64,000 nt of DNA from Methanobacteriota archaeon (GCA_963720465.1 OY970393.1:1152001-1216000), one strand, 5' to 3'; counted from the stretch's first letter, positions 33,021-52,955 are shown. Notes: generated by a model not told the origin, from the letters alone. A program made the numbers and translations.

Positions 33021-33962
33021 ATGAAAGGCAAGAAGGTAATCGTCACTGGCGGTTTAGGCTTCATTGGTTCGCACTTAGTGGAAGCACTTGTGGAAAAAAA
33101 CGACGTCACGGTAATCGACGACCGGTCGACGGGGAAGTTGGAGAATATCGATCATTTGGGTGACGCACGCCCGGAAGTGATCGAAGGGGACGTCACTGAA
33201 CTCAATTTACCAGAAATCTTCGACGGCTATGAGTACGTTTTTCATGAGGCAGCGCTTCCCAGCGTTCAGCGCAGCATCGACGAACCGCTGATGTCAAACC
33301 AGTCCAACGCCACTGGGACCTTGAAGGTTTTGATCGCCGCCAAAGAATCGGGTGTAAAAAAGGTGGTCTATGCTTCGTCATCATCCGTGTACGGCGACAC
33401 CGTGGAGCTCCCGAAACGGGAAGACATGTGTCTTTCACCAAAATCCCCGTACGCGGTCACGAAGGCAACTGGTGAGCTCTACAGCACGGTGTTTCACCAA
33501 GTCTACGGCCTTCACACCATATCCTTGCGCTACTTCAACGTGTTCGGACCGCGGCAAGACCCATATTCCCAGTACGCTGCCGTAATTCCTAAATTTATAA
33601 CGGCGATTCTCAGCGGTAAACCGCCGACGGTTTTCGGGGATGGCACACAGAGTAGAGACTTCACTTTCGTGAAACACGTCGTTGAAGCAAATATTCGTGC
33701 GTGCGAATCCAGCGAGACCGGAACATTCAACATCGCCTGTGGCCGCAGCATTACCCTGAACGAGTTGATTGCCCTTCTCGCCAAGATCACTGGCAGCGAT
33801 GTTAAGCCAATCTATGCCGCGCGTCGGCCAGGAGACATAAGACACTCGCTCGCTGCTATCTCAAAGGCGCGAGTATTTGGTTACGCGCCGCATAGCAATT
33901 TCGAGGACGAGCTTCAAGAGACCGTAAGGTGGTTTGAGGGTGGAATTGTACGAGAAGATTAA
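33021..33962 (+). CDS. NAD-dependent UDP-HexNAc(A) 4-epimerase (WbpP/TviC-like SDR)
   Basis: TGGLGFIGSH, HEAALPSV, ASSSSVYG, PYAVTK, RYFNVFGPRQDP, GDGTQSRDF. Confidence 0.9.
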   Translation: MKGKKVIVTGGLGFIGSHLVEALVEKNDVTVIDDRSTGKLENIDHLGDARPEVIEGDVTELNLPEIFDGYEYVFHEAALPSVQRSIDEPLMSNQSNATGTLKVLIAAKESGVKKVVYASSSSVYGDTVELPKREDMCLSPKSPYAVTKATGELYSTVFHQVYGLHTISLRYFNVFGPRQDPYSQYAAVIPKFITAILSGKPPTVFGDGTQSRDFTFVKHVVEANIRACESSETGTFNIACGRSITLNELIALLAKITGSDVKPIYAARRPGDIRHSLAAISKARVFGYAPHSNFEDELQETVRWFEGGIVRED

Positions 33963-35277
33963 GAGCAAATCTGCGCGCATCGCTGTCATAGGGTTGGGCT
34001 ACGTCGGACTCCCGACAGCAGTCAACTTCGCTGAGAACGGGTTCAGCGTGATCGGAGTCAATAGGACACAGGAGAAAGTTGACATCATCAATGCGGGGGG
34101 GTGCTATCTTACCGACTTGAATATCGACGAACGCGTGCGAAGACTCGTCGGCCTTCGCAAGCTCACGGCCACTATCGACACAGCTGGCGCTACACGAGAA
34201 AGCGACGTGATCATCATCACCGTCCCAACGCCGATCACGTCGTTTAAGCGACCTGATCTATCATTTATCGTTTCCGCGGGTCAGGCCATTGCCCAAGGCC
34301 TGGGTCGCAACAAGCTCGTCGTCCTGGAATCGACTGTGTACCCGGGAGTGGTTGATGACGTGCTGAAGCCGTTGCTCGAAGAGTCAGGGTTGAAAGCCGG
34401 GACCGATTTTGGACTCGCCTACTGTCCGGAGCGATATAACCCGGGAGATGCCGATCACAATATTAGGGACGTGGTCCGAATCGTTGCGGGCATCACGCCG
34501 GAATGGGCTGAAGCAACAGCGCAGTTATACCTCAGCAACGCGAAGGACGTGGTCACGGTCAAGGATATCAAAACCGCTGAGGCGGCGAAAGTCATTGAAA
34601 ACATCCAGAGAGATCTCAATATCGCGCTCATGAATGAGCTCGCGCTGATCTTCGAACGCTTGGAGATTGACATCCAAGACGTGATCGAAGCCGCTTCGAC
34701 GAAGTGGAATTTCAACGTATATCATCCGGGGGCCGGAGTCGGCGGCCACTGCTTACCCGTCGACCCATACTACCTCGTTCATAAAGCCGAGGAGCTCGGG
34801 TACCACTCCCAGGTCATTACGGCCGGCAGGGCCGTCAATGATTACATGCCACTGCACGTTTTCCAGTTGACCGTCGACGCCCTCAACGAAAGAGCGCGAG
34901 CGGTCAACAAGTCGAAAATAGTCGTGCTTGGCCTGTCCTATAAGGAGAACGTGGGCGACTACCGCGAGAGCCCGACAGCTGTTGTGATTAACGAGCTTAC
35001 AAAGAGGGGCGCGATCGTCCATATCGTCGATCCATTCATCGAAGAGGACGTCCTGCGACGGTATGCGCAACCAGAAGCGACCGCATATGACGCTCTTTCC
35101 AACGCAGATGCTCTCGTCCTTATGACTGCCCACCGGGAGTTCTTGGGGCTTGACTTGGATCGCATCAAGGCAGAAATGCGCACCGCGATCATCGTCGACG
35201 GCCGGCGGTGCTTCGACCCAGAGATCGTCGAAAAACTCGGGATCGTGTATCGAGGGGTTGGGGCCAAGAACGGGTGA
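33934..35277 (+). CDS. UDP-N-acetylhexosamine 6-dehydrogenase (WecC/WbpA/WbpO family)
   Basis: GLGYVGLP, ESTVYPG, PERYNPG, KVIENIQRD, GVGGHCLPVDP, YKENVGDYRESP. Confidence 0.92.
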   Translation: MRVELYEKIKSKSARIAVIGLGYVGLPTAVNFAENGFSVIGVNRTQEKVDIINAGGCYLTDLNIDERVRRLVGLRKLTATIDTAGATRESDVIIITVPTPITSFKRPDLSFIVSAGQAIAQGLGRNKLVVLESTVYPGVVDDVLKPLLEESGLKAGTDFGLAYCPERYNPGDADHNIRDVVRIVAGITPEWAEATAQLYLSNAKDVVTVKDIKTAEAAKVIENIQRDLNIALMNELALIFERLEIDIQDVIEAASTKWNFNVYHPGAGVGGHCLPVDPYYLVHKAEELGYHSQVITAGRAVNDYMPLHVFQLTVDALNERARAVNKSKIVVLGLSYKENVGDYRESPTAVVINELTKRGAIVHIVDPFIEEDVLRRYAQPEATAYDALSNADALVLMTAHREFLGLDLDRIKAEMRTAIIVDGRRCFDPEIVEKLGIVYRGVGAKNG

Positions 35278-35643
35278 AGGATCCGAGGTCCGCAGAGACC
35301 ACAGCGCGATAGCGACGCGGCTCGACAATAGGCTATATTGCTTGAGTATCCCAGCTGTCTCGAATCGATGCGGTTATCTGTTTTTTGGCCGGCGTATCGT
35401 CGCCCGGCACCGCACCATACCTTATGGGGCCTCGGGGGGCGTATGACCACCACTCGAAGAGGGGCAACTCCGTTCACTCTTTACAAGATACTTCGTGCGC
35501 GTTGGATCCACAGTGCGAGACCGCTTGTCAGCAAATGCTCCAAAATTGCGGGGAAGCTTTGACCTCATATTACGGATCTTCTATCTCATTAACGCTGTGG
35601 TTCAACGTCTGAGGGGGACGCTGCTGCGAAGAACGCGCTTGTC

Positions 35644-35656
35644 ACAAAAGTTAATA
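35644..35656 (+). promoter_or_regulatory. Candidate BRE/TATA (ACAAAAG-TTAATA) upstream of the tRNA
   Basis: Purine-rich BRE-like run followed by TTAATA about 65 bp before the tRNA 5' end. Confidence 0.4.
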
Positions 35657-35720
35657 GCCAGTCCGGTACACACAAGAGTTGGCTGACGATATTGTCTGCA
35701 CTCTGTTTGAACACTGGAAC

Positions 35721-35792
35721 GCCTCGGTAGTTTAGTAGGAAAAGCACTTGCTATCCAAGCAAGACTCGTTGGTTCGAATCCAACCCGGGGCA
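35721..35792 (+). tRNA. Non-canonical tRNA-Gly(TCC)
   Basis: GCCTCGG TA GTTT AGTAGGAA AAGC A CTTGC TATCCAA GCAAG ACTC GTTGG TTCGAAT CCAAC CCGGGGC A. All four stems pair; T8/A14, G15/C48, G18G19 and TTCGAAT are present; anticodon TCC at 35754-35756; A73; no CCA; position 33 is A. Confidence 0.88.
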
Positions 35793-35984
35793 TATTTGCA
35801 GCATTGAAACTTCCGATGCTGAGCGCCCCGTAAGCAGTTTCAGAAGTTCGAGGTTCCACGTTAATTCCTACAGCGGTCGCTTCCCAAGTCCGAGCTTCTC
35901 GCCTGCGCTGTTCAATTCACATCCGCGCCATAACAATGTTACCGAGGCGTATTTAATTTCGTCGAAAGCACTGCGATGTTTGAA

Positions 35985-36095
35985 CAAGCAAAAAAACTGT
36001 GCTTTGTGATGCGCGTCGGTTTTGCCAACATAGCAATGCGGTTCTCACACCGAATCAAATTTCGATTTGAATCTGGAAAGACGCGGAAAGGGCGC
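35985..36095 (-). pseudogene. C-terminal relic of the FemAB/GNAT-like family
   Basis: Translates APFPRLSRFKSKFDSV*EPHCYVGKTDAHHK versus AWPEHLSRFKSKFDPELKPYCYVEKTDEFYK in 39711-40727; stop at 36045-36047. Confidence 0.85.
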
Positions 36096-36698
36096 TTACG
36101 TGTTCGATGCCGGTTTGCACGCCTTAAACCTCCTACCGCGACCTCAGATTCGTCAAGAACCTCCTTTCCATCGCTCTCTCGTCGCCCGGGCTTTAGCGGC
36201 GTGCTTGCGTACCCCAGGGACGGCGTACCATCGGGAGCTAGCACTCCTGTCCCGCGCCTTGCGTTTGTAAAAAGAAGCGACCTGGCTGCCCTAGGCTCAG
36301 CGTCGCGCAGGTGTCCTCCTTAACTGACACGGGGCCGCCGCGGATTTTCATTGGCTCACGACGCTGAATGTGCAAAGTGCGGTGTTTTTGCGGCGGTCAT
36401 AGGTAAAGCGCTTTACTCGTGCACGATGCTGTAGATATGTCCGTGATCTTGACCCTGACGTCGACCGTGACAGGAAGCGGCGAATGACCTCGAGCACAAG
36501 TGATCGCGCAGAAAGATATACCAAGGCGCCCTCATGGCAAACGGGCCATTGTCGTCTTACTCGCGTTACACTATTTGATGTCTGACTGACTCTCGGAACA
36601 AGAACAGACTGGCAACCTTGTAGGCCCTCTGCGCGCCCCTCATTGTCGGGTTTTGCGCCTCCCTCGTGTTCACAGCTGCACATTATCAGCGAGGGCGC

Positions 36699-37796
36699 TC
36701 AATGCAGCAGGACTAGTGGCAAAAATGGGAGCACCCCAAACAGGAGTATGTCGTCCACCGCGTGCATCGTGACGACAAACGGCAAGTTTTTTGTCTTGTA
36801 AAATGCTACGCCAAAGACGACACCCGCCCCGGTCGTGAAGAGGAGTTCGTGGACGCTACCGTAGCTCGCGTGCATGGCGCCGAAGATCACGCTCGTGATA
36901 AGGATTCCCCCGACCGCACCGCTTCGCTCCATGAGCTGCGGCTGCAGCAGGACACGAAAGAGGAGCTCCTCAACGAGCGCCACAAAGAAGATCATAACGA
37001 TGCTTAACCCGATGAGCTCTGAGGCTGACGCATTCGGGATAAGTGGTGGATTGCGAAGAATAGCGTATTCAATAAGCCCGAGCCCAAGGCCAACGAGGGC
37101 GCCAAACGGAATGAGGTACGTCAATCGGAGACCTCCCGTGAGCCCAAGGTCGTGGCGGCTCAGCTTTCGGTGTGCAACGATCGCTATGATCGGTATAAAC
37201 ATCACGCCGTAAATCGCCAGCCAGTAGTACAAGGCTACCGTTCGGATGATCAAGACGAGAGGGAAGTACATCACCCAGACGATGATGAACCAGTAGACCG
37301 CTGGCAGGAGCGCAAATGAAACGATGATGACAAGAGACACCGATAGCAAACCGAGCACTTGGAGCAGCTGTACGCGCTTACCATGCGGCACCGCCACGAT
37401 GACGGCAACCGCGATGATGTTGAGCGTTTGCACGCCGACGCCGAGCGCAGTGTGGCCTGCAAAGAGCAAGCCCTCGCCGGCGAGGATAAGAAATATGGCG
37501 AGGAGCTCATACCACGCCAAGTCGAAAACAATTCGGGCCCTAGCTGCAGAAGCTAGCGCGGCTCGTATGGTGTCAGGGAGGCGCAAAAACTTTTCCTCAA
37601 CACTGTGACTTTTCGCGGTTAAAGATACTACGTACTTCGGATGTTTTGCTATTTCTGCGATATCTGGCGTTCTATTCGTTAAACTTGTCGTACTACTTAC
37701 AAGCTGGTTATTTCTGGGCTGTTTTTCCTTATGCCACAATCGCAGCAAGCCTGTCTCGGAAAAATAACATCGTAAACGGCTGCTCATTCCGAACAT
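36699..37796 (-). CDS. CPBP/CAAX (Abi) intramembrane protease, paralog of 28537-29859
   Basis: VEELLFR, IFGAMH, MHAVDD; start uncertain. Confidence 0.87.
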   Translation of the reverse strand: MFGMSSRLRCYFSETGLLRLWHKEKQPRNNQLVSSTTSLTNRTPDIAEIAKHPKYVVSLTAKSHSVEEKFLRLPDTIRAALASAARARIVFDLAWYELLAIFLILAGEGLLFAGHTALGVGVQTLNIIAVAVIVAVPHGKRVQLLQVLGLLSVSLVIIVSFALLPAVYWFIIVWVMYFPLVLIIRTVALYYWLAIYGVMFIPIIAIVAHRKLSRHDLGLTGGLRLTYLIPFGALVGLGLGLIEYAILRNPPLIPNASASELIGLSIVMIFFVALVEELLFRVLLQPQLMERSGAVGGILITSVIFGAMHASYGSVHELLFTTGAGVVFGVAFYKTKNLPFVVTMHAVDDILLFGVLPFLPLVLLH

Positions 37797-38521
37797 CTCG
37801 GCTGCGACCAGATTGGTTTTGTTTTTTTTTGGTTATTTCGTACTACTTCAACAGCTTAAAGATACACCGTCTTAAGCATTATTACGCGTACGTAAAAAAC
37901 GCGGCCCTGATAGCTTATTTTACCTTTTGGGGTCACCGATTCAAATGCGCTGCGATAGCACTCTTAATTCAGCAACTTGGGGTGTTCGTCTGTTTTCGCC
38001 TATCGACAGCTGCGCTGTGAGTGAGTCCGATCTCTCTAAAAATCCGCTGGCAGGAAGGCACGTTAGCGTAAGCGTGCGAGAGCAGGGCCTTAAGACGGGC
38101 TGGAATTCTTTCAACTGGCACGATGTCGTAATGTCGCGTTGTATGACGGTGTTACACTACGCTCGACGCATCGCAGCTGTAGCAAATCAATAACGTTGCC
38201 TTTCAAAGTTTCGCGCTCCCGAGCTGCGCCTCCACCTGAATCGTCGGCCGTCCGAACGCTTTGGCAGCGAGCCAAGGTGTAGTTATGGCACTATGCTGTT
38301 AAGACGCTACGCAATGCGTAGCCAGTGAACGTATCCTGCGTGCCGCGAGGCCTCGCGAGAGGCATATCCTCCTTTTCGTCACTTTGAGATCGGTTATAAA
38401 GGGTCACACCGCGTTCAGTACCGGCTTTAATCGGGAATCCCCGCAAATGGCCATCGACGGTATCCATTTGCATAACAAGCTCTCGGTTTGCGAGGTTTTA
38501 GGCTCTAGGTTAGTTGCTATG

Positions 38522-39586
38522 TCAGTTTCGAGTCTCCGATTCGCCGTTCGACTCACGTCCACGCCGCCGAGGCAAGATATGCTTCTCTCCCAGCGCTGAG
38601 AGCTTTGAGTAAACAGACAGGGCGATTTTGCCAAGCGCGTCGGTTTTGTCAACATCGCAATACGGTTTGAGCTCTGGATCAAATTTTGATTTGAACATGT
38701 TAAGACGCTGAGGACCATTCGCGCCAATCAAATCCAGCATCTTAAAGCCCTCTGTTTTTGCGTGCTGAATTATCTCCCATAAGAGAAACTCGTTCGTATT
38801 CAATTCTGGGCGTGCGTTAACGCCACCGAACCAAAAGCCATAGCGGTCCTCACGCAGCGCACAGCACGCGATTGCGCCAGCGATGCTTCCGTCAATGCTG
38901 ACGGTGTGGACCGTCACACGCTGAGGAAATGCATCCACAACCTCCTCTAGATACCTATCACTAAAGAGATTCTGTCTTTCCCCGCGTTCTTTTCTTCGTT
39001 CTCGCCACATGCGAAGCACCGAGCTGACATCGCTTGTGTGCTCTACGTGAGGTGATAGTGCGCTTACGTGTTTGATGCCCTGTTTGCATCTTTTGCCGAA
39101 ACCGCCCCAGATATCGTCGAGGGGTTTTTCCAGGTCTATCGCGTACGTAAACTTGAGCTGGACCGCGTAGTTCTTCCACTCAAACGTCCGTACGTCGATG
39201 AAACTTGGAACAGTTATAAACGACAGGAAGTTGGGAGAGATCTTGTCGATTTCCGTGCACAGCTCGTCAGTCACTTGCGCAAAGACCTTCTCCTTTTTAT
39301 GTGCCCTCAGCCCGGCCACGCTGGGATCAAAAACGGGTCCTAAGTAGGGAATTTGCGCGTCTGGCGGCGGGGAGTACATTAACGTCAGCCCCCGGCGTCG
39401 AGTAACAAAAAAAGGGAGTATGCATCTGAGTTTGTTGCCTGAATATATGGCATACGGCACAAGCCGGTATCCGGAATGTCTCTCAACAATATTCAAAAAA
39501 TCCCACGTATGGAATAACGTCCCCTGTGGGCTGTTTTCGACAAACTGGTCCCAGATCTTTTTATCGTCTAGCACTTCAGCGGCCAT
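38522..39586 (-). CDS. FemAB-like / GNAT (Acetyltransf_6-type) protein, copy 1
   Basis: WDQFVENSPQGTLFHTWDFL, YLGP, TYAIDL, NEFLLWEIIQHAKTEGFKMLDLIGAN, FKSKF; start MAAEVL. Confidence 0.85.
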   Translation of the reverse strand: MAAEVLDDKKIWDQFVENSPQGTLFHTWDFLNIVERHSGYRLVPYAIYSGNKLRCILPFFVTRRRGLTLMYSPPPDAQIPYLGPVFDPSVAGLRAHKKEKVFAQVTDELCTEIDKISPNFLSFITVPSFIDVRTFEWKNYAVQLKFTYAIDLEKPLDDIWGGFGKRCKQGIKHVSALSPHVEHTSDVSSVLRMWRERRKERGERQNLFSDRYLEEVVDAFPQRVTVHTVSIDGSIAGAIACCALREDRYGFWFGGVNARPELNTNEFLLWEIIQHAKTEGFKMLDLIGANGPQRLNMFKSKFDPELKPYCDVDKTDALGKIALSVYSKLSALGEKHILPRRRGRESNGESETRN

Positions 39587-39710
39587 TGCGCCACCCCACA
39601 CGGTTTTCGCCACAAATCATCCAGGCACATTTCTTGCTCTGCGTTAGTCCTCTGTCGTTTATCTCCCAAGTCTCAGGTTCTCACCAGGCGCTGTTCTACT
39701 CACGTCCAAT

Positions 39711-40727
39711 CTACCGAAGCAAGACTCGTTCTCTCGCAGTTTTGACAGCGTTGTAAACTGAACTCTCTATTTTGTAAAACTCGTCGGTTTTTTCAACATA
39801 GCAATACGGTTTGAGCTCTGGATCAAATTTTGATTTGAATCGGGAAAGATGCTCAGGCCACGCGCCAAAAAAATCCAGCGTCTTAAAGCCCTCTAATTTT
39901 GCGAGCTGAATGACCTCCCATAAAAGAAACTCATTCGTATTCAGGTCTTTGCGGGCGTTAACGTTGCCGATCCAATAGCCATACCGGTCGTCACGCAGCG
40001 CACAGCACGCGATTGCGCCAGCGATGCTTCCGTCAATGCTGATGGTGTGGACCGTCACACGCTGAGGAAATGCATCCACAACCTCCTCTAGATACCTATC
40101 ACTAAAGAGATTCTGTCTTTCCCCGCGTTCTTTTCTTCGTTCTCGCCACATGCGAAGCACCGAGCTGACATCGCTTGTGTGCTCTACGTGAGGTGATAGT
40201 GCGCTTACGTGTTTGATGCCTCGCTTGCATCTTCCAGCGAAACCGCCCCAGATATCGTCGAGGGGTTTTTCCAGGTCTATCGCGTACGTAAACTTGAGCT
40301 GGACCGCGTAGTTCTTCCACTCAAACGTCCGTACGTCGATGAAACTTGGAACAGTTATAAACGACAGGAAGTTGGGAGAGATCTTGTCGATTTCCGTGCA
40401 CAGCTCGTCAGTCACTTGCGCAAAGACCTTCTCCTTTTTATGTGCCCTCAGCCCGGCCACGCTGGGATCAAAAACGGGTCCTAAGTAGGGAATTTGCGCG
40501 TCTGGCGGCGGGGAGTACATTAACGTCAGCCCCCGGCGTCGAGTAACAAAAAAAGGGAGTATGCATCTGAGTTTGTTGCCTGAATATATGGCATACGGCA
40601 CAAGCCGGTATCCGGAATGTCTCTCAACAATATTCAAAAAATCCCACGTATGGAATAACGTCCCCTGTGGGCTGTTTTCGACAAACTGGTCCCAGATCTT
40701 TTTATCGTCTAGCACTTCAACAGCCAT
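39711..40727 (-). CDS. FemAB-like / GNAT protein, copy 2
   Basis: Near-identical to copy 1 over the first about 240 codons (offset 1141 bp). Confidence 0.85.
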   Translation of the reverse strand: MAVEVLDDKKIWDQFVENSPQGTLFHTWDFLNIVERHSGYRLVPYAIYSGNKLRCILPFFVTRRRGLTLMYSPPPDAQIPYLGPVFDPSVAGLRAHKKEKVFAQVTDELCTEIDKISPNFLSFITVPSFIDVRTFEWKNYAVQLKFTYAIDLEKPLDDIWGGFAGRCKRGIKHVSALSPHVEHTSDVSSVLRMWRERRKERGERQNLFSDRYLEEVVDAFPQRVTVHTISIDGSIAGAIACCALRDDRYGYWIGNVNARKDLNTNEFLLWEVIQLAKLEGFKTLDFFGAWPEHLSRFKSKFDPELKPYCYVEKTDEFYKIESSVYNAVKTARERVLLR

Positions 40728-40848
40728 GGTTACACGACCACGCGGCGGGTAATCGCTTTGCCGCACAATTGCTTGATCTGGGATCTGGCAAGCTAAGTTA
40801 TACCACTTGTTTCACGTTCCACCTTTTTAAGGTTTCTTGGGCTCTGCG

Positions 40849-42102
40849 TCAGCTCCTACGTCGGCCGCTTCCGCAATCGCAGGCGCGCGTGGAAACAGCT
40901 CGATTCACATACCGCGCCGAGGCAACATGCGCTTGACACTGAGTACCTGAGCTGGCTAGCTTTGAGCGTGCAAAGTTGGCAATCTTGGCCAGCATGTCAG
41001 TTCTCTCGACATAGCAAAATGGCTCTACGGCTGGATTAAATCGAAATTTGAACTCAGAAATACGCTGATTAGGGGCACCAGTCAAATCTAGCTTTTTGAA
41101 GCCCTCTGACTTTGCGCGCCGAATGATTTCCCATTCAAGATACTCAACCACACCCAGGTCTCTACGCGCACTAACGCCACCGATCCAACTACAATATCGC
41201 TCCTTTTGAATGGCACAGTACGTGCTTGCGGTAGCGAGCCTTCCGTCGATGCTGACGTTGTACACGGTCACGTCCTGGGGAAACGTAGCCACAAGCTCCT
41301 TGAGATAACTCTCGCTTAGCAGCGGCTCTTCTTTTGCACATTGGCGGAATCGTTCTCGCCAGATGGCAAGCAAGGAACTAACGTCGTTAGTTTGTTGTAC
41401 CTCAGGAGAGTAAGCGCTCACACGCTTAATCTTCTGCCTGCAGCCTCTACTAAATGATGCCCAGATCTCATCGACGGATTTTTCCAAGTTGATAGCGGAC
41501 GTGAACATCAAGTGCGCCGTGAAGTTCTTCCAAATAAAGGAGCGCACGTCAAGAAAATTTGGGACCGTCCTAAAATTCATGAAATTTGGAGCGATCTTGT
41601 CAACTTCGCTGCACAGCTCCCCAGTCACTTGCTCAAAGATCTTCTCCTTTTTATGTGCCCCCAGCCCGGCCACGCTGGGATCAAACGCGGGTCCTAAGTA
41701 GGGAATTTGTGCATCAGGTGGCGGGGAGCGCATTAGCGTCAGTCCCTGGCGTCGAGTAATAAAAAAAGGGAATACGCACATAAGTTCGTTACCTGAAAAT
41801 ATGGCATACGGCACAAGCTGGGACCCAGAATGTTTTTCAACGATCTTCAAAAAATCCCAGGTATGAAATAACGTTCCCTGTGGGCTGTTTTCGACAAACT
41901 GGTCCCAGATCTTTTTATTGTCTAGCACTTCAACAGCGATTTTTGCGTGTCCACATACTGATAGTATCAGTCCGTGCGCTAATCCGACCGGCAAGAGGAA
42001 GCAGTTCCCTAATACAATAGACGGGAGTACCACGCAAATAGCTAGAACAGCTACGCTGATGACAAGTTTTGTTAATGCGGACCCAGGTTTAACTAAGTCC
42101 AC
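40849..42102 (-). CDS. FemAB-like / GNAT protein, copy 3, with hydrophobic N-terminal extension
   Basis: Same motifs; the paralogous ATG is ATC at 41938-41940; GTG at 42102 is preceded by GGGGGG. Confidence 0.75.
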   Translation of the reverse strand: MDLVKPGSALTKLVISVAVLAICVVLPSIVLGNCFLLPVGLAHGLILSVCGHAKIAVEVLDNKKIWDQFVENSPQGTLFHTWDFLKIVEKHSGSQLVPYAIFSGNELMCVFPFFITRRQGLTLMRSPPPDAQIPYLGPAFDPSVAGLGAHKKEKIFEQVTGELCSEVDKIAPNFMNFRTVPNFLDVRSFIWKNFTAHLMFTSAINLEKSVDEIWASFSRGCRQKIKRVSAYSPEVQQTNDVSSLLAIWRERFRQCAKEEPLLSESYLKELVATFPQDVTVYNVSIDGRLATASTYCAIQKERYCSWIGGVSARRDLGVVEYLEWEIIRRAKSEGFKKLDLTGAPNQRISEFKFRFNPAVEPFCYVERTDMLAKIANFARSKLASSGTQCQAHVASARYVNRAVSTRACDCGSGRRRS

Positions 42103-42219
42103 TTAGTCCCCCCTTTTTTCCATGCTTGCCCTTGACGGGAAAATTAATCAAAGCGCAAACGGAGCGCGAAAGCTTAAGTGTTGCTGTCCACCCTGTGTGA
42201 CCGAGGGGGTCAGCCCGCC

Positions 42220-42545
42220 ACGCGCCGTGACTAAACCTAGGTTACGGCGCACCCACGAGTAGGGGCAATCAAAACAGATAAAAACGAGAGAGCGTTGCAT
42301 AGCGTTCAGGGTCAAGGGCTCCGGCAGGCAAAGATAGATGCTGGAATGGGGTCGGTAGCACCTCAACAAGCTTGGACAAAGGACTTGAAAGAGGCGAAGA
42401 ATACTTTTTACCGAAACGTCCACGTCTCGATGGCAGTGACTTCAGCGGCAGGGTCTTTGAAAATCGCCGTTTATGGCGCTCTCTTGAAGTTATAGAGAGC
42501 GCTTCGTCATCGCCGATGCCTCCAGAAGCGGGGGCGGCTTCTCTT
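42220..42545 (+). mobile_element. Possible degenerate IS200/IS605 (tnpB) remnant
   Basis: Hairpin gcgccgtgac-N9-gttacggcgc (42222-42250); SVAPQQAWTKDLKEAKNTFY resembles the TnpB N-terminal S.ALQQ..KDL..A..NFF motif. Confidence 0.3.
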
Positions 42546-42567
42546 GTCTATGCGCTAGCTGCTGATT

Positions 42568-43302
42568 TCAAAGTCTGTGCAGGCGGTTAGCCCCCATTAG
42601 TGCAAGTTCATAAATCTTCGAATAATACTTCGTATAGTCGTAGCGCTCGACAAGGTCTCCCCCAAAACCTTTCTTCCAAGCACTATACCCAACTTCTTGT
42701 AAGTCGCCATCTTTAACGTAATATCTTCCGAGGTCGAATTCTCGCAGTCCCTTGGCCTTCGCGTACTTTATCGTCTCCCACACGAGCAACTTGTTCGCGT
42801 TGCCAATCAAAGAGGCTCTGTCGCGATCAACGAGTCGCTTTGATGCTGCTAGCCTCCCCAATATAGTGTGGCCATCGGCAAAACAAGCGTGGCCGCACAG
42901 TATATCTCCATCGTACTCTGCAATGAACAGCGGACCGCTTCGTTTTAAAACACTCGTCTTCTCGAAATCAGGGTAAATCCCTTTTTTCTTTCGAAACGAA
43001 TCATTCAGTTCTTGGAATTCATCATAATCTTCATTAAGTTTGACTCTGACACCAGCCCGTTGAGCGCGCTTTATATCTCTTCGAGTTGAGCTCTTGCTCA
43101 TTTTTTTCCAGATTGTGTCAAGGTCTTGCGCTAAATCTATCACTAAGTTTGTCTTGGATCTCATCTGAAAACCCGCGAGGTCTACCTTATACTTAGTGTC
43201 GGTGAACTTGACGCAGTGATAGCCCTTTACGTCAAAGGGGTACGAGCTAAACCAGACCTTTTTGGTTTTGAACCAATATCGGCGACTTTCTAACTCCAAC
43301 AT
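42568..43302 (-). CDS. Short FemA/FemB/FemX-like GNAT protein
   Basis: VIDLAQDLDTIWKKMSKSSTRRDIKRAQRAGV, ANKLLVWETIKYAKAKGLREFDLG, WKKGFGG (FemABX FK.GFG-type motif). Confidence 0.85.
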   Translation of the reverse strand: MLELESRRYWFKTKKVWFSSYPFDVKGYHCVKFTDTKYKVDLAGFQMRSKTNLVIDLAQDLDTIWKKMSKSSTRRDIKRAQRAGVRVKLNEDYDEFQELNDSFRKKKGIYPDFEKTSVLKRSGPLFIAEYDGDILCGHACFADGHTILGRLAASKRLVDRDRASLIGNANKLLVWETIKYAKAKGLREFDLGRYYVKDGDLQEVGYSAWKKGFGGDLVERYDYTKYYSKIYELALMGANRLHRL

Positions 43303-43872
43303 GGTGTTTGTCGAGAACTGTCGAAAGAGCCTATAATGCGACCTACATGCGACATCAGATTAATGTTCCAGCCGCTTGAAAGGTTTTAAGCGGAAATCAG
43401 ACGTCCTGGTGTATTTTGCTCTTGATGTATTAATAAATAGTCCTGTTAATCGATACTTCGGCGATTGACGAGAAGCATTACAAGTGCACAAGTTGAGGTT
43501 GGAACCTTTCTTGTCAAATCAATAGAGATTCCGAGCAAAATCGGGACGCTTGTTGCTCAATCCCAGCGATTTGAAAGTCAAACTGTGTCGGATCGCTTGC
43601 AGCTAGAGTGAATGGCTTCCTCAGTACACACCTCTTGTCCATCGCCTGCCCCCTCAAAAACGGACGAGGCTTTCTGTCGACAATTGATGTTGTTTCCTAC
43701 AGATTTGGCGCCTTCACCACGGGCTTCTCGCACATCTCGTTCGACAATCTGAAGGCGGTACAGTTTGAGGGGCTGCCAAATACTGCGGCTCGACGCAAGC
43801 AAGCCTCCATCTTTGAGGATAAAATCAGTCGGATACATCATCAACGGCGTCAACTAATTGTGACCTTGCTCT

Positions 43873-45408
43873 TCAATATGCTCGCAGCTGCCTCAAATAT
43901 GATTGGATTACACTGGACGCGGCGGCGTAAGCTTCCAAGCGGAACGAGCGCACGAAAATGAAGTAGAACGCGGCGCCGAAACTTACTTGGAGAGTCAGAT
44001 GCGCGGCATACGACCAGCTGTTTGGCAGTAGGAGGCCGAACGCCCAAACAGCTAGCGCCATCGTTGCTGCGGCGTAAAACTGAGGTGCCAGCTTTCTCAG
44101 CATGGTGGCGAAGTTCAAATCAATGAGGCGAGCTGGAATTGACCAGTTGGGGTGCCACAGCAGGAAATTAGCCACAGTATAGGCGACAGCAACGCCCAAC
44201 GCCCCCCAGCGTAGTCCCACGACGAACGAAATGATGTAGATGGATCCGACCACGAGCCCCCACCTGAACATGATGTCGGTTCGGCCCTGAGACTGATAGA
44301 GCCAAGAACCGGTGATGCCTATAGACTGAATAGCGCTAAGAATGCTAAAAACTTGAATGATGGGAATCATCCCAGCCCACGTGTCACCAAATAATGTGAG
44401 CACTAATGGGCGTGAAAGAACTAGCAGTCCCAACGAGACAGGAAACGCCACGAGCGAGATAACGCTGATTGATCGCAAATAGAGAGCCCTCACCCGTTCT
44501 ATGTCGTTTTGGATCTTTGAGAGAGCGGGAAACATGACGAATGTAATGACGCTCGCTATCTGGGTCAGCGGCAGCACTAGAATGGCGTACGAACGGGAGT
44601 AAATCCCCAAGGGTGCTGATCCTAAGTAGCGGCCGATCAACAAGTTGTCGCAATTTAGCGTCCAGTAGTTGGAAATGGCAGCACCGAGGTAGTTAGTGCC
44701 GAACTTAGAAAGATCCTTAACTGCGCTCAGTTGCAGTGAGAAATCGGGTCGCCACGGCGCCAGGACCCACACCATGGCGACGTAGACGATCGCATTAAGA
44801 ACGTACAGGGCAACGATGCTCCACACCCCAAAACCGCTCAAAGCTAAGTATATCGCGGCGGCACCCGGAATCACAGAGCTGGTCAGCCCAGCGATTGCTA
44901 GCGTACGAAAATCCATCGCTTTTTGGACGAGAGATTGCGTTATCGTACCAAATGAGTTGATGATGAAGATCGGCGAAATTGCGATGGTGAGGGACTGGAG
45001 CTCCGGGACACCATAAAAGGATGCGATGTAGGGAGCCGCTGCAGCAAAAATCAGTGTTAGTAGCACTCCCACAGCAATGCTGACCCAAAATACCGCATTC
45101 TTGTGGCGCTGTTCCACGTCCACTTTTTGAATCAAGGCTGCACCAAACCCCATATCAGTAAATAACATTGCAAACCCCGTAAAAACGACGACCATCGCAG
45201 CTAGTCCGAAGTCTTGTGGAGACAAAAGATGCATCAGGATGACGGTTACCACTAGGGAAATTAGCTGACTGCCCGCTTGCGCGATACCGCTCCACGCCAG
45301 GCCAACGCGGATTTCGCTTTCTAAGTCCTGCATTTTGACCGGAATTGCATTACCTCGTTTTGCAAAGGTTTGGTCTGCCGTGGCGCTTCTAGCCGATTCG
45401 GTGACCAC
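43873..45408 (-). CDS. Polysaccharide flippase (WzxC-like)
   Basis: LLSPQDFGL, DMGFGAALIQ, DNLLIGRYLG..LGIYSRSY, VMFPALSKIQND; alternative start at 45333. Confidence 0.9.
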   Translation of the reverse strand: MVTESARSATADQTFAKRGNAIPVKMQDLESEIRVGLAWSGIAQAGSQLISLVVTVILMHLLSPQDFGLAAMVVVFTGFAMLFTDMGFGAALIQKVDVEQRHKNAVFWVSIAVGVLLTLIFAAAAPYIASFYGVPELQSLTIAISPIFIINSFGTITQSLVQKAMDFRTLAIAGLTSSVIPGAAAIYLALSGFGVWSIVALYVLNAIVYVAMVWVLAPWRPDFSLQLSAVKDLSKFGTNYLGAAISNYWTLNCDNLLIGRYLGSAPLGIYSRSYAILVLPLTQIASVITFVMFPALSKIQNDIERVRALYLRSISVISLVAFPVSLGLLVLSRPLVLTLFGDTWAGMIPIIQVFSILSAIQSIGITGSWLYQSQGRTDIMFRWGLVVGSIYIISFVVGLRWGALGVAVAYTVANFLLWHPNWSIPARLIDLNFATMLRKLAPQFYAAATMALAVWAFGLLLPNSWSYAAHLTLQVSFGAAFYFIFVRSFRLEAYAAASSVIQSYLRQLRAY

Positions 45409-45665
45409 AAGCTAAAAAATCGGAGTCTCGAACAGCTCAGGCACGTCTTAATATATGACGTTTTACGTTTTAGTCCCGCAGCCGACTCAGGTCCGCGGAT
45501 AGGGCGACGAGATTCCGATCGCAGGATCGCTCTTCTTGCACCAGGCCACTCATCGAAAATGGCATCGCGGCCCAGAATCAGCAGCTGCCATCAAACGCAG
45601 GCGTTTGCAGTTGGCGCAAAAATGGCGACAAGCTCCCACACACGTTTGTACCAAATACGACCGCT

Positions 45666-46568
45666 TCAAGTACTCACGTTCACAAGTAGATACAGCTGCC
45701 TATAAGGCGATCCGGTGAGGTCGTCGAGGTACAGCAGAAAATCAATGCGCATGTTGTTGCCGGCACGATTAGGAGTCAGTGACAGATTTTTTTCGACCGT
45801 CTGACCGTTTGCAACGGTCTGGCGCCCTGAGTACAACGTGGTTGAGGTGTTGCCGTTCGTGAGACTGACCACAAGCAGATAGTTCTCATCTCGATTTTCA
45901 TGATTCGCGATCGCGACAGTCGCTGGTTTCGTCTGACCGACTGAGAAGTTTGTCGGGTACCCCTGCATTGTGCCTCCCGGACCAAGGAGGTACATCTCAG
46001 TGTAGTTTTCTCGGGGTTCGGGAGTCGCCAGCGAGTACAGCAGCACCGAGGCCGAAAAAAGAACGGAAAAGGCAACAAATATGGTCAGGGCCCGCGGTAC
46101 GCGGCCCGCTCTTTGCGCGCGAAGCGCTTGCATAAAATCCACGACACGCTCACTGCTCACGTCCATCCGCTGGGCAGGCGTGAGCGTGTGTCGTCGCACG
46201 TACGCAGACGCGGTCACCACCAAGATGAAGAGGGTCGCACTTGTCGCCACTGATTGGACGCTCAGCCCCCAGTCAGTGTAGTTGAGGGCCAATGCCAATA
46301 CCGGCACGATCACGGTGCTGAGGCCAAACGAAAACGCCGCGCGTTCAACACTGGTGATATCACCGTTTCGCGGAAAAAGCGCTGCGATGAAGGAATACCC
46401 GGGCACAAACAGCACGATCGGAATAACTACAACTGATCGGAGGACGCTATTGCTGAGCAAGGGCGCTGTGGCGAATACAAAGACTGCAATGCCTACTGCT
46501 AACGCAAGCAGCAAATCAACGTCCGAAATGCTGGCTCTGGATCGCGCGCCGGAGCGAGTGGATTCCAT
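45666..46568 (-). CDS. DUF1616-like membrane protein
   Basis: LFVPGYSFIAALFP, ERAAFSFGLS, LNYTDWG, ENYTEMYLLG, YPTNF, IANHE, PYRQLYLLVNV. Confidence 0.85.
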   Translation of the reverse strand: MESTRSGARSRASISDVDLLLALAVGIAVFVFATAPLLSNSVLRSVVVIPIVLFVPGYSFIAALFPRNGDITSVERAAFSFGLSTVIVPVLALALNYTDWGLSVQSVATSATLFILVVTASAYVRRHTLTPAQRMDVSSERVVDFMQALRAQRAGRVPRALTIFVAFSVLFSASVLLYSLATPEPRENYTEMYLLGPGGTMQGYPTNFSVGQTKPATVAIANHENRDENYLLVVSLTNGNTSTTLYSGRQTVANGQTVEKNLSLTPNRAGNNMRIDFLLYLDDLTGSPYRQLYLLVNVST

Positions 46569-47371
46569 TTGTATTCCTAGCAATTTTTAGCACAAGCCCC
46601 GAAACGCGGTGGATATGGACTTGAAGTTCCCTGTACATTTGATCAACGTTTGCTGCAATGTCATTGTTGACGGCAGTGCGCGCTCCACGTGCTTCGGTCC
46701 TCGCCTGGACTCCATTACTTGGAAACGACTTTAAAGTTTAAATATGTCGACTATAACGATATCCTCGAAGCGACCGAAGTAAAAATGATGTTCACTCCTG
46801 TCGTCTATCGGCTTCGTATGATTCAAATGCCGTTGATAAGCGACGTGCGCGAACGAGTACGAACCTGCAGGATGCGCACGTATCCGTCCATACGCTGCCA
46901 GAATCAGGCGGATGGTTTGCCTCCGTTGGAGCACTCAGGCAGGCGCACGGGGTTTTGTCGGGCTTTCAGGCGGCCATCTGGGAACAGTTTTGGTCGAAGT
47001 CAAAGACAACTAACGTTAGGGCGGTTCTGAGAGAGAACACAACGCGCGACCATCAAAGGAATAAGATCGTTTGCCAGTGCAAAAATGGTGTGGCCGACAT
47101 CACCATCGTAAAGCGGGCAGCTTGCCCGAGGTGTTCCCGCAAGATCGGTTTGCATGTTCATCCGAGCCCGAGCGATCGGAGCGCGACGGCTGAGCTACGT
47201 TATTTACCGGTTGCCTAACTCAAGGGCCACCCAAACGCGAGCCGTGAAGTCTAAGAACTGCCAACGCGAGATGCCCAAAAAATGGCCGATAAAGGCGATT
47301 CGAATGCGCACCCGTACGAACTTCAGAGCGCCCTCTTTGCAGAAATCGATTCGAGGGGCCAGAGCAGGACG

Positions 47372-49660: not shown

Positions 49661-51391
49661 ATGTACGCCGTGTTACAGATAGATGATGGGGCCCTTATTG
49701 ACGTTCGGGACTTCGAGCACGTGGTCAGCAGCGACCGTCGGACGTTCTATTTTGATGGGACGATCGATGGATTTATTCGAAGCGACTACGCGGTTGAGCA
49801 CAGCGTTGATGCGCCCGCACTGATTAGCGAGCTTCCCAAGTGCTTGGCGAGAATTAGCGGCCAGTACGCCGGCGTTTCTATCAAAGACGGTGCGCTGGAA
49901 TTCGCTTCCAGTGATATCGGGGCCAAGCAAGAGCTATACTATGCGACGACCGATTCTGAGCTCATTATCTCAACAAATTTCTTCGACCTCGCAAAAACGG
50001 TCGGACAGCTTGAATATGACTCTATGGAGCTACCCTATTTTCTCGCTGGCGGCTACTGTCGTCACGGGAAAACGACCTTCAAGGGGATATACCAGTTGCC
50101 ACCGGGCGAAACGCTACGTCACAGTCCACAGGGCTCGATTGTTACGGAGAGCTATTTAGATGATTTCAGCGGGATCAAAGTGACGTTTGGCGTTTTCAAG
50201 AACGCGATTCTGCAGGCGATCCGTACCGCTATCCAACAGGACCCCGCCTTCGACGAGGTTGTCATGTTGTCAGGCGGCGTCGATTCTTCAGTCTTGTGCG
50301 CCTTGATCAAAAAAGTCAAGGATGTGTCCGCCGTAACCTACCGCTTTGTCCCCGCCATTTCTTGGAATCGTGCAGACGAAATCAAGTCCGAAAAAATGGC
50401 AAAAAAAATACAGGTGAAGCACGAGATAGTAGACGTCAATTTAGACGATATCAACCTCGATTACCTAGACGATGTGATAATTTCAATGCCCTTCGCGGCA
50501 CATCTTGGCGTCAATTACAAAAAGATCTTCAGTTTCGAATCTTCGGTGAATCGGAAGCGCCGGCTGTGGTGCGGACAGGACGTGGACAGCTTATACAATT
50601 ATGCTGAGACGGCACCCCTTGCAATAGCTTCACGTTTCATGTTTTCTGACACGTACGCGAGAATGCTGCGAGGTATTAATGGCTATGCAAAGTACGGATC
50701 GGCTAAGCAAGCGCTTGACCTAGTTCTCACGTCTCTGTTTCGCAGCAAGTACAGACGGCGTTTTGAAACACCTGCGTCGTTTGATGAGCTTCTGCTCGGA
50801 GTTGCGCGATCGAGGGACAAATACCCTCCCGCCTTGCGGCCCGTCGGCGAGGAGACTGAAGCTCAAAATGGTAGGGTCGACACACGTGAGCCTATCACTG
50901 TCCCTGAAATACGAAAACGCTTGGTTGATGAAATGCTCAAGACCAACCTCTCTGACGGTACACATTACATTCAGTTACAAGCGCAAAGGCTCTTCCACTT
51001 GAACAACATTTTGCTCTATTCAACCCCGAGCGTCGTTCATTTGTTTCGGCAGCTGCGATTGTCTTTGCTCGACGTGGCTTTCAGCAAGCGCCTCTTGTAT
51101 CGATACGCGCGAGAGCTCGGCTTGCCAAAAAGCGATTTTCGGTCAGTTGACTACTCTCCAAAACCGGCGCAGAGGCCGCAAGACTGGTTGGAGGTATTTG
51201 AATCGACCACTTTCGGAGGAGAACTGAGAGAGCGCGCATCGAAGTTGGCACATCAAATGGACCTCAAATGGACCCCGTCAGGAGCGAGCACCTGGGATGA
51301 GGCAGCAAGGCTCTTGTGGCTAAACAACGTCTGGTTGAAGTTGACAGAAGGCGGCGTAGATCTGAAGTGGCCCACCTTCGGGACGCGATAA
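49661..51391 (+). CDS. Asparagine-synthetase-like ATP-dependent amide ligase
   Basis: GQYAGV, TTFKGIYQLPPGE, PP-loop MLSGGVDSS, CGQDVDSLY; lacks the N-terminal Cys; TATAAATA upstream. Confidence 0.8.
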   Translation: MYAVLQIDDGALIDVRDFEHVVSSDRRTFYFDGTIDGFIRSDYAVEHSVDAPALISELPKCLARISGQYAGVSIKDGALEFASSDIGAKQELYYATTDSELIISTNFFDLAKTVGQLEYDSMELPYFLAGGYCRHGKTTFKGIYQLPPGETLRHSPQGSIVTESYLDDFSGIKVTFGVFKNAILQAIRTAIQQDPAFDEVVMLSGGVDSSVLCALIKKVKDVSAVTYRFVPAISWNRADEIKSEKMAKKIQVKHEIVDVNLDDINLDYLDDVIISMPFAAHLGVNYKKIFSFESSVNRKRRLWCGQDVDSLYNYAETAPLAIASRFMFSDTYARMLRGINGYAKYGSAKQALDLVLTSLFRSKYRRRFETPASFDELLLGVARSRDKYPPALRPVGEETEAQNGRVDTREPITVPEIRKRLVDEMLKTNLSDGTHYIQLQAQRLFHLNNILLYSTPSVVHLFRQLRLSLLDVAFSKRLLYRYARELGLPKSDFRSVDYSPKPAQRPQDWLEVFESTTFGGELRERASKLAHQMDLKWTPSGASTWDEAARLLWLNNVWLKLTEGGVDLKWPTFGTR

Positions 51392-51751: not shown

Positions 51752-52525
51752 CTAGTCTTGGTCACCGCGCGCTAAAACCAGCAAGTTAAAATGAGGGAAA
51801 ATTGCGGCAGCCAAACCAGGGTCGAACCGGAACATATTCTTTCGAATCTGAAAAATCATTCTTGCCTCAAATCCCCGCAAAGTATTTTGCCGGATTTCAT
51901 CGTCAAACGTGTAAAAATAATCAACAACTTCATAACCAAGATTGGCGAGTGTAGCCAGCGCAGTTTCCTTCGAGAAATAATGCAAATGCCCGTATCTCTT
52001 CCGCATGTAAAGCATGTAATTCGATTTGCTCAGGATAGTCCGCGCGCACATATCTAATGGAATGTGAAAAATCACCCATTTCGTTTTTTTTCGTAGTGCA
52101 TCCAGAAAACCAAGATAATCGGGAACATGCTCAAATACATCTAACAAAAGTACAAGGTCTGCTGAAGCCACCTTAGCCTTTAGAAAATCGTCGTTATAGA
52201 ATTTCAGGTTGGCATCCTCCTTCGATCTTGCAATTTCAATGGCCTGCGGAGAGATGTCAAAACCAGCTAATGCTACATCACGATTGATTTCTTTTTGCAA
52301 TTCAACCAAGATTTGGCCAGCACCACATCCGATATCATAGATGGACTCACAAGTCAGGTGATTTTTTTCCATCATCTGCAATACTTTGGAGGCCTTCCAA
52401 GGTGAATCGCCGACATGACAATCTTGAACCTTCTCTAGGTATGTTCCGTCTGCGTACTGCGCGGCAGAAACTCTAAAATCAGTGAGCTCTATTTGTACAC
52501 CGCGGCCGCTTCGTCGGTCCGCCAT
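51752..52525 (-). CDS. Class I SAM-dependent methyltransferase
   Basis: YDIGCGAG, GFDISPQA, DVFEHVPD, GHLHYF. Confidence 0.88.
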   Translation of the reverse strand: MADRRSGRGVQIELTDFRVSAAQYADGTYLEKVQDCHVGDSPWKASKVLQMMEKNHLTCESIYDIGCGAGQILVELQKEINRDVALAGFDISPQAIEIARSKEDANLKFYNDDFLKAKVASADLVLLLDVFEHVPDYLGFLDALRKKTKWVIFHIPLDMCARTILSKSNYMLYMRKRYGHLHYFSKETALATLANLGYEVVDYFYTFDDEIRQNTLRGFEARMIFQIRKNMFRFDPGLAAAIFPHFNLLVLARGDQD

Positions 52526-52955
52526 ACGCCATCCCCCCCGGGAAACGTTAACAGATAATAGCACGCTGGCGCAATTTAAAGGTTATCTTTTCTCGAAGCG
52601 TTATCCGTACACTCTCAATTGTAGTCAATTTTATTCGATCGATCGGAGCGGATACAGGCCGCTCCAAGCAAAAAAATACCAATTTTTTTAACCCGAAGAT
52701 TATATAACTTAACTTCTTATAACGCCCGTTATTCGCTTCATTTTTTTATTTAAACCGCGTTAATGACCCTTAGAGAGATGCTTTCTTTTTCCAACCTATA
52801 CGCTGGATTTCCATGTCTCTCTTGCATCAGAAATCGGAACGCATAAGAAGTCGCCTATGTGCCACCACGCCTCCAGGCATCTCTCTGGCCGTGAGTTTCT
52901 TCTTTTTCGGCTTAGTGAGGCCAACAAACAGCGCGGCCCATTTGATCAACGAGGC

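Follow-up and report, generated by a model that had tools for sequence, protein, structure and literature searches.

An extra, structurally atypical glycine transfer RNA (tRNA) gene lies inside a cell-surface glycan cluster of an archaeal genome, and we propose that its product may act as a sporadic, cluster-borne, translation-impaired aminoacyl donor for the Fem-like transferases encoded nearby. We put the probability of this reading at roughly 0.45, and we advance it tentatively. The gene is located in a 64-kb stretch of DNA (G000:C1:1152001-1216000, hereafter the window, whose coordinates are used throughout unless genome positions are given) of a genome that is available as a single contig of 2,313,764 bp with 51.7% GC. 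The initial annotation of the window took the host to be an archaeon, which agrees with the many tRNA introns in the genome and with the titles of related metagenome-assembled genomes (Euryarchaeota/Methanomicrobia). We further propose that the tRNA belongs to a small sporadic lineage, of which one other member was found, in what appears to be a deacetylase - tRNA - Fem-like operon. The element in question is the following:

35721..35792, + strand, accessory tRNA-Gly(UCC) with A33, intronless, discriminator A73, 51% GC (ARAGORN and Rfam)

This gene is the sole tRNA called by ARAGORN in the window (tRNA-Gly(tcc), 35721-35792, +), and it matches the Rfam tRNA family RF00005 over its full length (56.8 bits, E 3.7e-10, threshold 29), compared with 45.6-71.6 bits for the 38 other matches in the genome. 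Within 30000-48000, no other RNA family matches at E<=1. The stems measure 7, 4, 5 and 5 bp and comprise an acceptor stem GCCUCGG/CCGGGGC, including a U4-G69 pair, a D-stem GUUU/AAGC, an anticodon stem CUUGC/GCAAG and a T-stem GUUGG/CCAAC (G-C, U-A, U-A, G-C, G-C). Read from the sequence, the anticodon loop is U32-A33-U34-C35-C36-A37-A38, in which U32 and A38 are able to pair; the same two bases occur in the native tRNA-Gly(GCC). The other conserved positions are standard (U8, A14, G18G19 and the T-loop GTTCGAAT), and the D-loop AGUAGGAA and T-loop UUCGAAU retain G18G19 and U55. The gene does not encode CCA, and its discriminator is A. Signs of a pseudogene, such as broken stems, lost loop bases or truncation, were not seen, as all four stems pair and only base 33 is changed. 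The region 35000-36162 was recovered with 0 differing letters on contigs of four public DNA runs from one study; these runs are possibly the source samples, and so they lend no independent support to the sequence. No RNA run carrying the region was listed, which tells neither for nor against expression.

The initial annotation had hinged on there being a separate, canonical tRNA-Gly(UCC) elsewhere in the genome, and such a gene is present at genome positions 296796-296879, with U33, GC-rich stems and a 12-nucleotide (nt) intron at 37/38. This canonical gene has a box TTAATATA at -35 and a T-arm common to the GCC and CCC glycine tRNAs, which are the other tRNA-Gly genes of the genome (at 270311 and 2186592, respectively), and an intron-bearing counterpart is found in 16 of 17 congeners. 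The window tRNA is no recent duplicate of a native gene, since its identity to any other tRNA of the genome is at most 53/72. Its acceptor stem and T-arm are Thr-like, and its body is not Gly-like. The set G1-C72, C2-G71, C35, C36 and A73, which we take to be the elements recognised by archaeal glycyl-tRNA synthetase (GlyRS), is present in the window tRNA and in all three canonical tRNA-Gly; the discriminator of the genome's tRNA-Thr genes is U73, versus A73 in the window tRNA and the tRNA-Gly genes. The expectation that the tRNA would prove atypical was borne out as well. Position 33, almost universally U in tRNAs, is U in 44 of the 45 scored tRNA calls of the genome (52 ARAGORN calls less 5 longer than 300 nt and 2 with an intron before the anticodon), and the window tRNA alone has A33. 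GGA is an ordinary codon, making up 23% of the Gly codons in the genome, which speaks against a translational need for a second tRNA-Gly(UCC) gene, and codon usage gives no positive functional clue either. In the ARAGORN list, the two tRNA-Gly(UCC) genes and two different tRNA-Cys(GCA) genes (genome 931006-931077 and 1403881-1403952) stand out as the clearest duplicates with a common anticodon.

To place the window tRNA in a wider setting, we turn to its nearest relative. A BLAST search of 400 genomes of the phylum ranks G326:C136:3310-3382 first (80% identity over 67 nt, E 2.7e-9). This tRNA comes from a genome of a different class; the remaining matches in the phylum are short T-arm pieces or ordinary tRNAs. 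A reciprocal search from the G326 tRNA returned the window tRNA as the best non-self match (E 3.6e-9), followed at 74-76% by ordinary U33 tRNAs with no Fem-like gene close by. The G326 tRNA scores 60.4 bits on RF00005, and its loop U-C33-CGU-A-A and discriminator U constitute a threonine set. It is found 41 nt after a PF01522 polysaccharide deacetylase gene and 78 nt before a Fem-like gene (PF13480, 52.7 bits; PF02388, 23.8 bits), all on one strand, and the 12.9-kb contig also encodes a DUF362 protein, a hexapeptide acyltransferase, a DUF354 protein, a flippase, a full AsnB and a glycosyltransferase. The two tRNAs have 26 identical nt, from the variable loop to position 72. Just past this identity the discriminator differs (A in the window, U in G326), in step with the anticodon (UCC and CGU, respectively). 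Neither a pattern search nor the 37 RF00005 matches of G326, which is 79% complete, turned up another tRNA-Thr(CGU).

Adjacency of this kind is rare. No tRNA was found within 1.5 kb on either side of the 30 best-scoring PF13480 loci, and 40 further PF13480 loci (about 3 kb on either side) had three ARAGORN calls, none of them confirmed by Rfam. Together with a third set of loci, taken up below, this gives 0 of 98 PF13480 loci with an Rfam-supported tRNA. Five more Fem-like stretches yielded one ordinary tRNA, just past an eight-copy array in G113:

L292:16801-16897 (G113:C4:34800-34896), tRNA-Ile(GAU) with a 29-nt D-loop insertion and its own AT-rich upstream box (Rfam 58.5 bits)

The first adjacency, that in the window, had caught the eye at the outset and is not counted, and the second, that in G326, was found blind, through tRNA similarity alone. 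It is hard to put down to chance that the closest match to the window tRNA, among the tRNAs of 400 genomes, lacks U33 and adjoins a Fem-like gene as well.

The Fem-like side of the pairing is represented in the window by four genes, followed by a flippase gene, and by a relic that faces the tRNA:

35838..36140, - strand, relic of a Fem-like gene, 3' end with about 50-60 C-terminal codons plus downstream sequence (tblastn, blastn, tblastx, repeats)
38522..39613, - strand, Fem-like protein of 363 amino acids (PF13480 1e-12; TIGR03019 51.8 bits, below cut-off)
39711..40766, - strand, Fem-like protein of 351 amino acids, 87% identical to the 363-residue copy (PF13480)
40849..42102, - strand, Fem-like protein of 417 amino acids from the first GTG (PF13480 1.5e-12; PF02388 17.1 bits, below cut-off)
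42568..43302, - strand, short Fem-like protein of 244 amino acids, C-terminal GNAT half (PF13480 1.8e-7; PF02388 25.6 bits, cut-off 24)
43873..45408, - strand, MOP/Wzx-type flippase (PF13440 1.7e-86; NF007773 278 bits, above cut-off)

This arrangement, a row of four FemAB/GNAT-like genes next to a flippase, had been described in the initial annotation, and the profile searches agree with it. All four proteins pass the PF13480 cut-off of 22 bits (48.9, 43.6, 48.3 and 31.9 bits). For the FemAB family PF02388, the match of the 244-residue protein extends over 58 residues, the 417-residue protein falls short and the other two have no match. Three copies are full-length, two-domain proteins, the third being about 58-62% identical to the 87%-identical pair, and the 244-residue protein is 26% identical to the long copies. 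It is uncertain whether the hydrophobic N-terminal extension of the 417-residue protein is real. The best NCBIfam match for all four is the PEP-CTERM FemAB family TIGR03019, at 24.6-61.1 bits versus a cut-off of 260.35, and they are not members of it. A profile built from 45 homologues matched S. aureus FemX (6snr) over about 140 residues (E 1.6e-5) and an entry named 'aminoacyl-tRNA-dependent peptide synthase' (E 0.1). Searched against the PDB, one full Fem-like protein and its C-terminal 129 residues gave no useful match. Atlas clusters around a homologue are mostly archaeal and auto-named GNAT or 'FemA/FemB family', and PF13480 is present in 131 of the 401 genomes of the phylum sample. Judged by sequence, the window enzymes are thus Fem-related Acetyltransf_6 proteins, not demonstrable FemABX enzymes and not members of TIGR03019. 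A profile search of the genome contigs with an alignment of the four paralogues found 2 loci only. In metagenomes, the closest protein relatives are the Fem-like P0002 (80% identical), on a 30-kb contig, and P0009, which shares a 138-kb contig with the dehydrogenase P0095. A stretch of 18 of 20 bases (14 of them consecutive) is common to the tRNA (35751-35770, from the anticodon loop to the variable loop) and to the stop region of the 351-residue gene (39711-39730); we set it aside as a probable chance match, which does not extend and at which the paralogues differ.

The relic was another feature that the initial annotation had recognised. With the local Fem-like proteins as queries, tblastn places it at 35925-36117 (-), in alignment with residues ~303-351 (42-46% identity; best E 2.3e-5). 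Two intact copies match 36003-36087 with their 3' ends at 78-79% identity by blastn, and the similarity can be traced to 35838 by tblastx; the relic sequences are members of the repeat families D3/D4. The 3' end of the relic faces the tRNA at a distance of 46-133 nt, and the intact array begins 2.7 kb from the tRNA.

On its other side, the tRNA follows a pair of overlapping genes for nucleotide-sugar enzymes on the same strand:

33021..33962, + strand, NAD-dependent sugar epimerase, TviC-like (PF01370 5e-58; NF011728 209 bits, cut-off 760)
33934..35277, + strand, nucleotide-sugar 6-dehydrogenase, UDP-ManNAc/UDP-GlcNAc dehydrogenase-like (three-domain UDPG_MGDP_dh; TIGR03026 429.9 bits, above cut-off)

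The best named match of the epimerase is TviC (UDP-GlcNAcA C4-epimerase), far under the cut-off of that model. The position of the tRNA just downstream of this pair, as first annotated, is confirmed by ARAGORN and Rfam, with 443 nt between the dehydrogenase stop codon and the tRNA start.

What the sequences show is the anatomy, the duplicate status of the tRNA, its A33, its absence from the relatives searched and the second linked case. From these elements we infer a mechanism in all its steps, from expression, charging and exclusion from translation to the use of aminoacyl-tRNA, the acceptor and the amino acid. The window tRNA would be transcribed, probably by read-through from the epimerase/dehydrogenase operon, and then matured. 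The ordinary GlyRS would charge it through C35, C36 and A73, and A33, which would not form a U-turn, would cause it to be used poorly or not at all on the ribosome. Its glycine could then be handed to the cytoplasmic Fem-like (double-GNAT) transferases, which would acylate an amino sugar of the cluster's glycan at its free amine while the sugar is linked to lipid or nucleotide, and the flippase would export the aminoacylated product. In G326, the free amine would be produced by the deacetylase encoded beside the tRNA, and threonine would be the amino acid that the tRNA delivers. In a more general form, which we put forward with some doubt, there would be mobile glycan-cluster tRNAs without U33 whose anticodon and discriminator are swapped jointly (UCC with A73 for Gly; CGU with U73 for Thr) and which feed Fem-like N-aminoacylation of a de-acetylated amino sugar before flipping. 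Two details of the initial annotation, sequential action in the manner of FemX/A/B and glycine as the transferred residue, are purely conjectural.

Numerous observations weigh against a dedicated donor tRNA, many of them from relatives. A BLAST search with the window tRNA gave nothing but one 21-nt fragment in 17 congeners, 6 more members of the family and 37 other relatives, and its 26-nt 3' stretch (up to 3 mismatches) occurs in G000 only among 24 genomes of the class. No tRNA-Gly was found near the Fem-like arrays of relatives in 22 stretches (349,317 bases), whether introns were searched for or not, and a loop-plus-T-arm pattern found no second intronless tRNA-Gly(UCC) in the listed relatives, including carriers of Fem-like arrays. 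Matches to the Fem-like proteins are present in 12 of 60 relatives and 6 of 17 congeners, with up to 14 in one genome. Consequently, the conserved tRNA/Fem pairing that would have been expected from the initial annotation did not materialise: it was not found in the 17 congeners, including the 6 with homologous Fem-like arrays. On the evidence of relatives alone, before the G326 match, we would have given that idea about one chance in eight.

The second case has weaknesses of the same kind. The G326 tRNA is a singleton, its 26-nt stretch being found in no other of 79 genomes of the class, and it is missing from a 90%-complete sister species, whose Fem-like homologue is only 29% identical. The margin in global alignment is modest, with the window tRNA 77% identical to the G326 tRNA versus 71% to an ordinary tRNA-Thr. 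There are two cases only, and their Fem-like neighbours are about 20% identical, with no other close genes in common. The 28 loci whose Fem-like proteins come closest to that of G326 (25-56%) had no tRNA nearby. The search for atypical tRNAs near Fem-like genes that the initial annotation had recommended was thus productive in one respect, the C33 tRNA of G326 with its threonine set, and fruitless in another, as about 125 other Fem-like stretches or loci of the phylum have no tRNA-Gly close by and at most two of them have an ordinary tRNA.

Further points concern the window itself. The Fem-like copy closest to the tRNA is dead and lies in a 1.4-kb, gene-poor stretch private to the genome. That this PF13480 clade takes aminoacyl-tRNA rather than acyl-CoA as its donor is pure conjecture. 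The tRNA keeps G18G19 and U55, the loss of which is the hallmark of the staphylococcal-type carriers with which it had been compared at first. A TATA-like box at -20 to -60 of the tRNA is poor, the best having 3 mismatches at -70; boxes with at most 2 mismatches precede 27 of 47 tRNA calls of the genome, and since the other 20 also do without a good box, the promoter scan is weak and not decisive.

The local DNA raises the question of a foreign origin. The glycosyltransferase gene at 31306-32454 and the gene for a CPBP protease at 36699-37796 are common to congeners (77-82% DNA identity), and the interval between them differs. The epimerase/dehydrogenase pair is found in four congeners (4/23 family genomes; dehydrogenase, 74-81% identity) with no tRNA in those stretches, and homology with them ends exactly at the dehydrogenase stop codon. 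This loss of homology, together with the differing interval, makes 35278-36630, with the tRNA and the relic, private to this organism's DNA; outside the relic, the stretch shows no similarity to other parts of the genome. Such a stretch of 1.4 kb, lacking a counterpart in congeners that have both flanks and containing a gene relic next to the tRNA, could hold a hitch-hiking or decaying foreign tRNA, brought into a hypervariable surface island by a mobile element or with a swapped glycan cassette, with A33 as the first disabling change and no role for the Fem-like enzymes. The tRNA is private to the genome among 60 relatives and the 24-genome class, is unlike the native tRNAs, is AT-richer, and is intronless where the native tRNA-Gly(UCC) bears an intron. 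It has no clear promoter box, and with GGA an ordinary codon a second gene would be superfluous. Proximity to Fem-like genes in two genomes would then mean that both glycan islands are rich in such genes. Ordinary tRNAs do sometimes flank Fem-like arrays: in addition to the tRNA-Ile of G113, ordinary Asn, Met, Phe and Ser tRNAs occur in one of the 22 stretches, with the Asn, Met and Phe genes 780 nt from a Fem-like pair in G041.

However, we consider a foreign tRNA without a Fem role, the main rival to our proposal, to be less likely than that proposal. No integrase, transposase or att-like repeat was found in the parts of the window examined, the open reading frames scanned being those beyond position 11,000. 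An att site in the tRNA was considered and rejected, as the window contains no second copy of the 3' half and the only repeats that flank the tRNA stretch are Fem paralogues. BLAST searches of phage and plasmid collections gave no match to the tRNA, and three scans of viral contigs for pieces of it gave 0 matches. The GC content of the stretch equals the genome mean, and all conserved bases and stems besides position 33 are intact. Drift would also leave unexplained why the nearest relative among 400 genomes is non-U33 and Fem-adjacent, as opposed to 0 of 98 PF13480 loci with a tRNA, and why anticodon and discriminator change jointly. A scan of metagenomes with an anticodon-arm pattern matched at least 120 stretches; the 80 loci among them were all the reverse complement of tRNA-Ser(GGA)-type arms (free position T in 63, C in 17, A in none), and the scan is therefore uninformative on the window tRNA in metagenomes.

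Atypical tRNAs are found elsewhere in the phylum. For example, a second tRNA-Thr(UGU) with the loop C-A33-UGU-A-A is present in all five genomes of family f9 that were searched:

L222:1501-1575 (G041), L223:1501-1575 (G051), L224:1501-1593 (G031, with an 18-nt intron) and L220/L221 (G113, G120), A33 tRNA-Thr(UGU) of family f9

Its T- and anticodon stems show compensatory changes. In G041 it is separated by 140 nt from the canonical gene with U33, in G113 it is surrounded by housekeeping genes (diphthamide synthase, tRNA-splicing endonuclease and two aminoacyl-tRNA synthetases), and one complete genome without a PF13480 match also has it. Its retention in five of five genomes means that A33 alone is no proof of translation exclusion, which is one more point against a dedicated donor. 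We rejected the idea that it represents the lineage of the window tRNA, because it is 83% identical to its own genus's canonical tRNA-Thr(UGU) and 59-69% identical to the window tRNA; the housekeeping context and the presence without PF13480 also speak against it. A tRNA-Thr(UGU) with an unusual D-arm, GAGCAUGGGCGGUGCAUGC, was seen in four genomes of family f8 (L263, L264, L272, L273).

The conservation and compensatory stems of the f9 tRNAs indicate that selection keeps A33 tRNAs in that family, including in a genome that has no PF13480 match, and the window tRNA could likewise be a working spare isoacceptor: acquired, competent in translation, with A33 tolerated, and adding to the decoding of GGA/GGG. 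It has kept G18G19, the T-loop and a standard 7-nt anticodon loop. We nevertheless judge this improbable, as codon usage shows no need for it, no congener has kept a copy, and the repeated Fem-like neighbourhood would be left without a reason. Replacing U33 weakens ribosome binding. U33 is described as needed for the U-turn, and position 33 was left unmutated in tRNA selection experiments (PMC11231383).

A role that involves no charging at all can also be imagined. The G326 tRNA sits between two same-strand genes, with short spacers on either side, and the window tRNA trails the epimerase/dehydrogenase pair on the same strand without a clear promoter of its own. Both might be tRNA-like processing elements for RNase P/RNase Z that separate or stabilise the sugar-modifying and Fem-like messages. 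Such an element would not need matched anticodon and discriminator sets for GlyRS or threonyl-tRNA synthetase, and the gene downstream of the window tRNA is convergent and dead; we regard this explanation as very improbable.

From about 11 kb to its end, the window is a cell-surface/glycan island, which includes seven GT4-type glycosyltransferases, a branching-enzyme-like transferase and an acyltransferase_3 protein. Other features of the island are the following:

11467-14520, 14976-17687, 19531-22629, 23852-26008 and 55945-59127, all - strand, five large proteins with repeated Big_3_5 Ig-like domains
36699..37796, - strand, CPBP/CAAX (Rce1-like) intramembrane protease (PF02517 3e-19)
45666..46583, - strand, DUF1616 membrane protein (PF07760 6.9e-74)
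49661..51391, + strand, Asn-synthase-like PP-loop ATPase (PF00733 2e-7; weak NCBIfam asn_synth matches below cut-off)
51752..52564, - strand, SAM-dependent methyltransferase (PF13489 4.6e-17)

One of the Big_3_5 proteins additionally contains papain-like protease and lectin-like domains; all five are presumably surface proteins decorated by the island. The CPBP gene at 36699-37796 adjoins Fem-like genes in G003, G007 and G011 (77-80% DNA identity), which suggests that surface-protein processing may be connected with the Fem-like genes. The island has a second protease of this type at 28537-29859, and the best NCBIfam matches of these proteases are C-terminal-sorting MrtJ/MrtS types, weak and below cut-off. 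In the Asn-synthase-like protein no glutamine-amidotransferase domain was detected; it may possibly carry out an ATP-dependent amidation step of the same glycan.

The closest parallel is with the staphylococci. Weak elongation-factor determinants in the T-stem and poor use on the ribosome characterise the staphylococcal non-proteogenic tRNA-Gly. [quoted passage not shown] Dedicated translation-excluded tRNAs that feed Fem transferases are, as a lineage, so far described from staphylococci only (PMC7826273). The resemblance to the window is that each has an extra tRNA-Gly(UCC) beside a proteogenic one, with an altered anticodon loop that is expected to hurt decoding, in a genome that encodes Fem-superfamily enzymes. 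Both would presumably be charged by the normal GlyRS, as indicated for S. aureus (PMC13443448; PMC7826273). However, the change in the window tRNA is from U33 to A33, and G18G19 and U55 are kept. The staphylococcal tRNAs are genus-wide, whereas the type described here is sporadic (2 genomes found), with a sister that has a threonine set. The window tRNA departs from the staphylococcal family in two sequence hallmarks and in conservation and so is not a member of it; it would instead be an analogous, independent solution. To our knowledge, the archaeal host is not expected to have murein. Unlike in staphylococci, the tRNA lies inside a glycan cluster, and the likely acceptor would be a surface glycan rather than murein.

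The titles and abstracts covered contain no account of a private tRNA that is paired with Fem-like enzymes in archaea. If the proposed reading is true, this would be a second, independent invention of a Fem-feeding tRNA, in archaea and on a glycan instead of murein, and tRNA-dependent surface chemistry would be older or more widespread than thought. The archaeal cell surface would be decorated non-ribosomally with the help of a private tRNA, encoded beside the enzymes and re-targetable to another amino acid via anticodon and discriminator. The Acetyltransf_6 genes, present in about one third of the phylum genomes sampled, would gain a first clue to their function, and a non-U33 tRNA adjoining a Fem-like gene would be a simple genomic marker with which to find more such systems.

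Fem transferases can also use ordinary tRNAs, as Weissella FemX does with Ala-tRNA-Ala. Such enzymes are cytoplasmic double-GNAT proteins of about 330-360 amino acids that act on nucleotide- or lipid-linked precursors (PMC2175331), a description that fits the arrays of the congeners, which have no extra tRNA. Unlike FemX-type enzymes, the window family is remote, with a profile match of E 1.6e-5 over ~140 residues and no PDB match for single proteins. TIGR03019, found in XrtA/PEP-CTERM exopolysaccharide loci, resembles the window proteins in belonging to polysaccharide clusters and not to murein pathways; no tRNA partner for that family was found described in the literature looked at, as represented by its titles and abstracts. 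A further comparison is with the N-glycan of Methanococcus, in which threonine is attached to a uronic acid, the sugar carboxyl being joined to the amino group of Thr. Like the product proposed here, this is an amino acid on a sugar of a surface glycan, and genes for an Asn-synthase-like ATPase and a methyltransferase are present in the window as well. Unlike a Fem-type transfer to a sugar amine, however, the Methanococcus linkage needs an ATP-dependent amidoligase.

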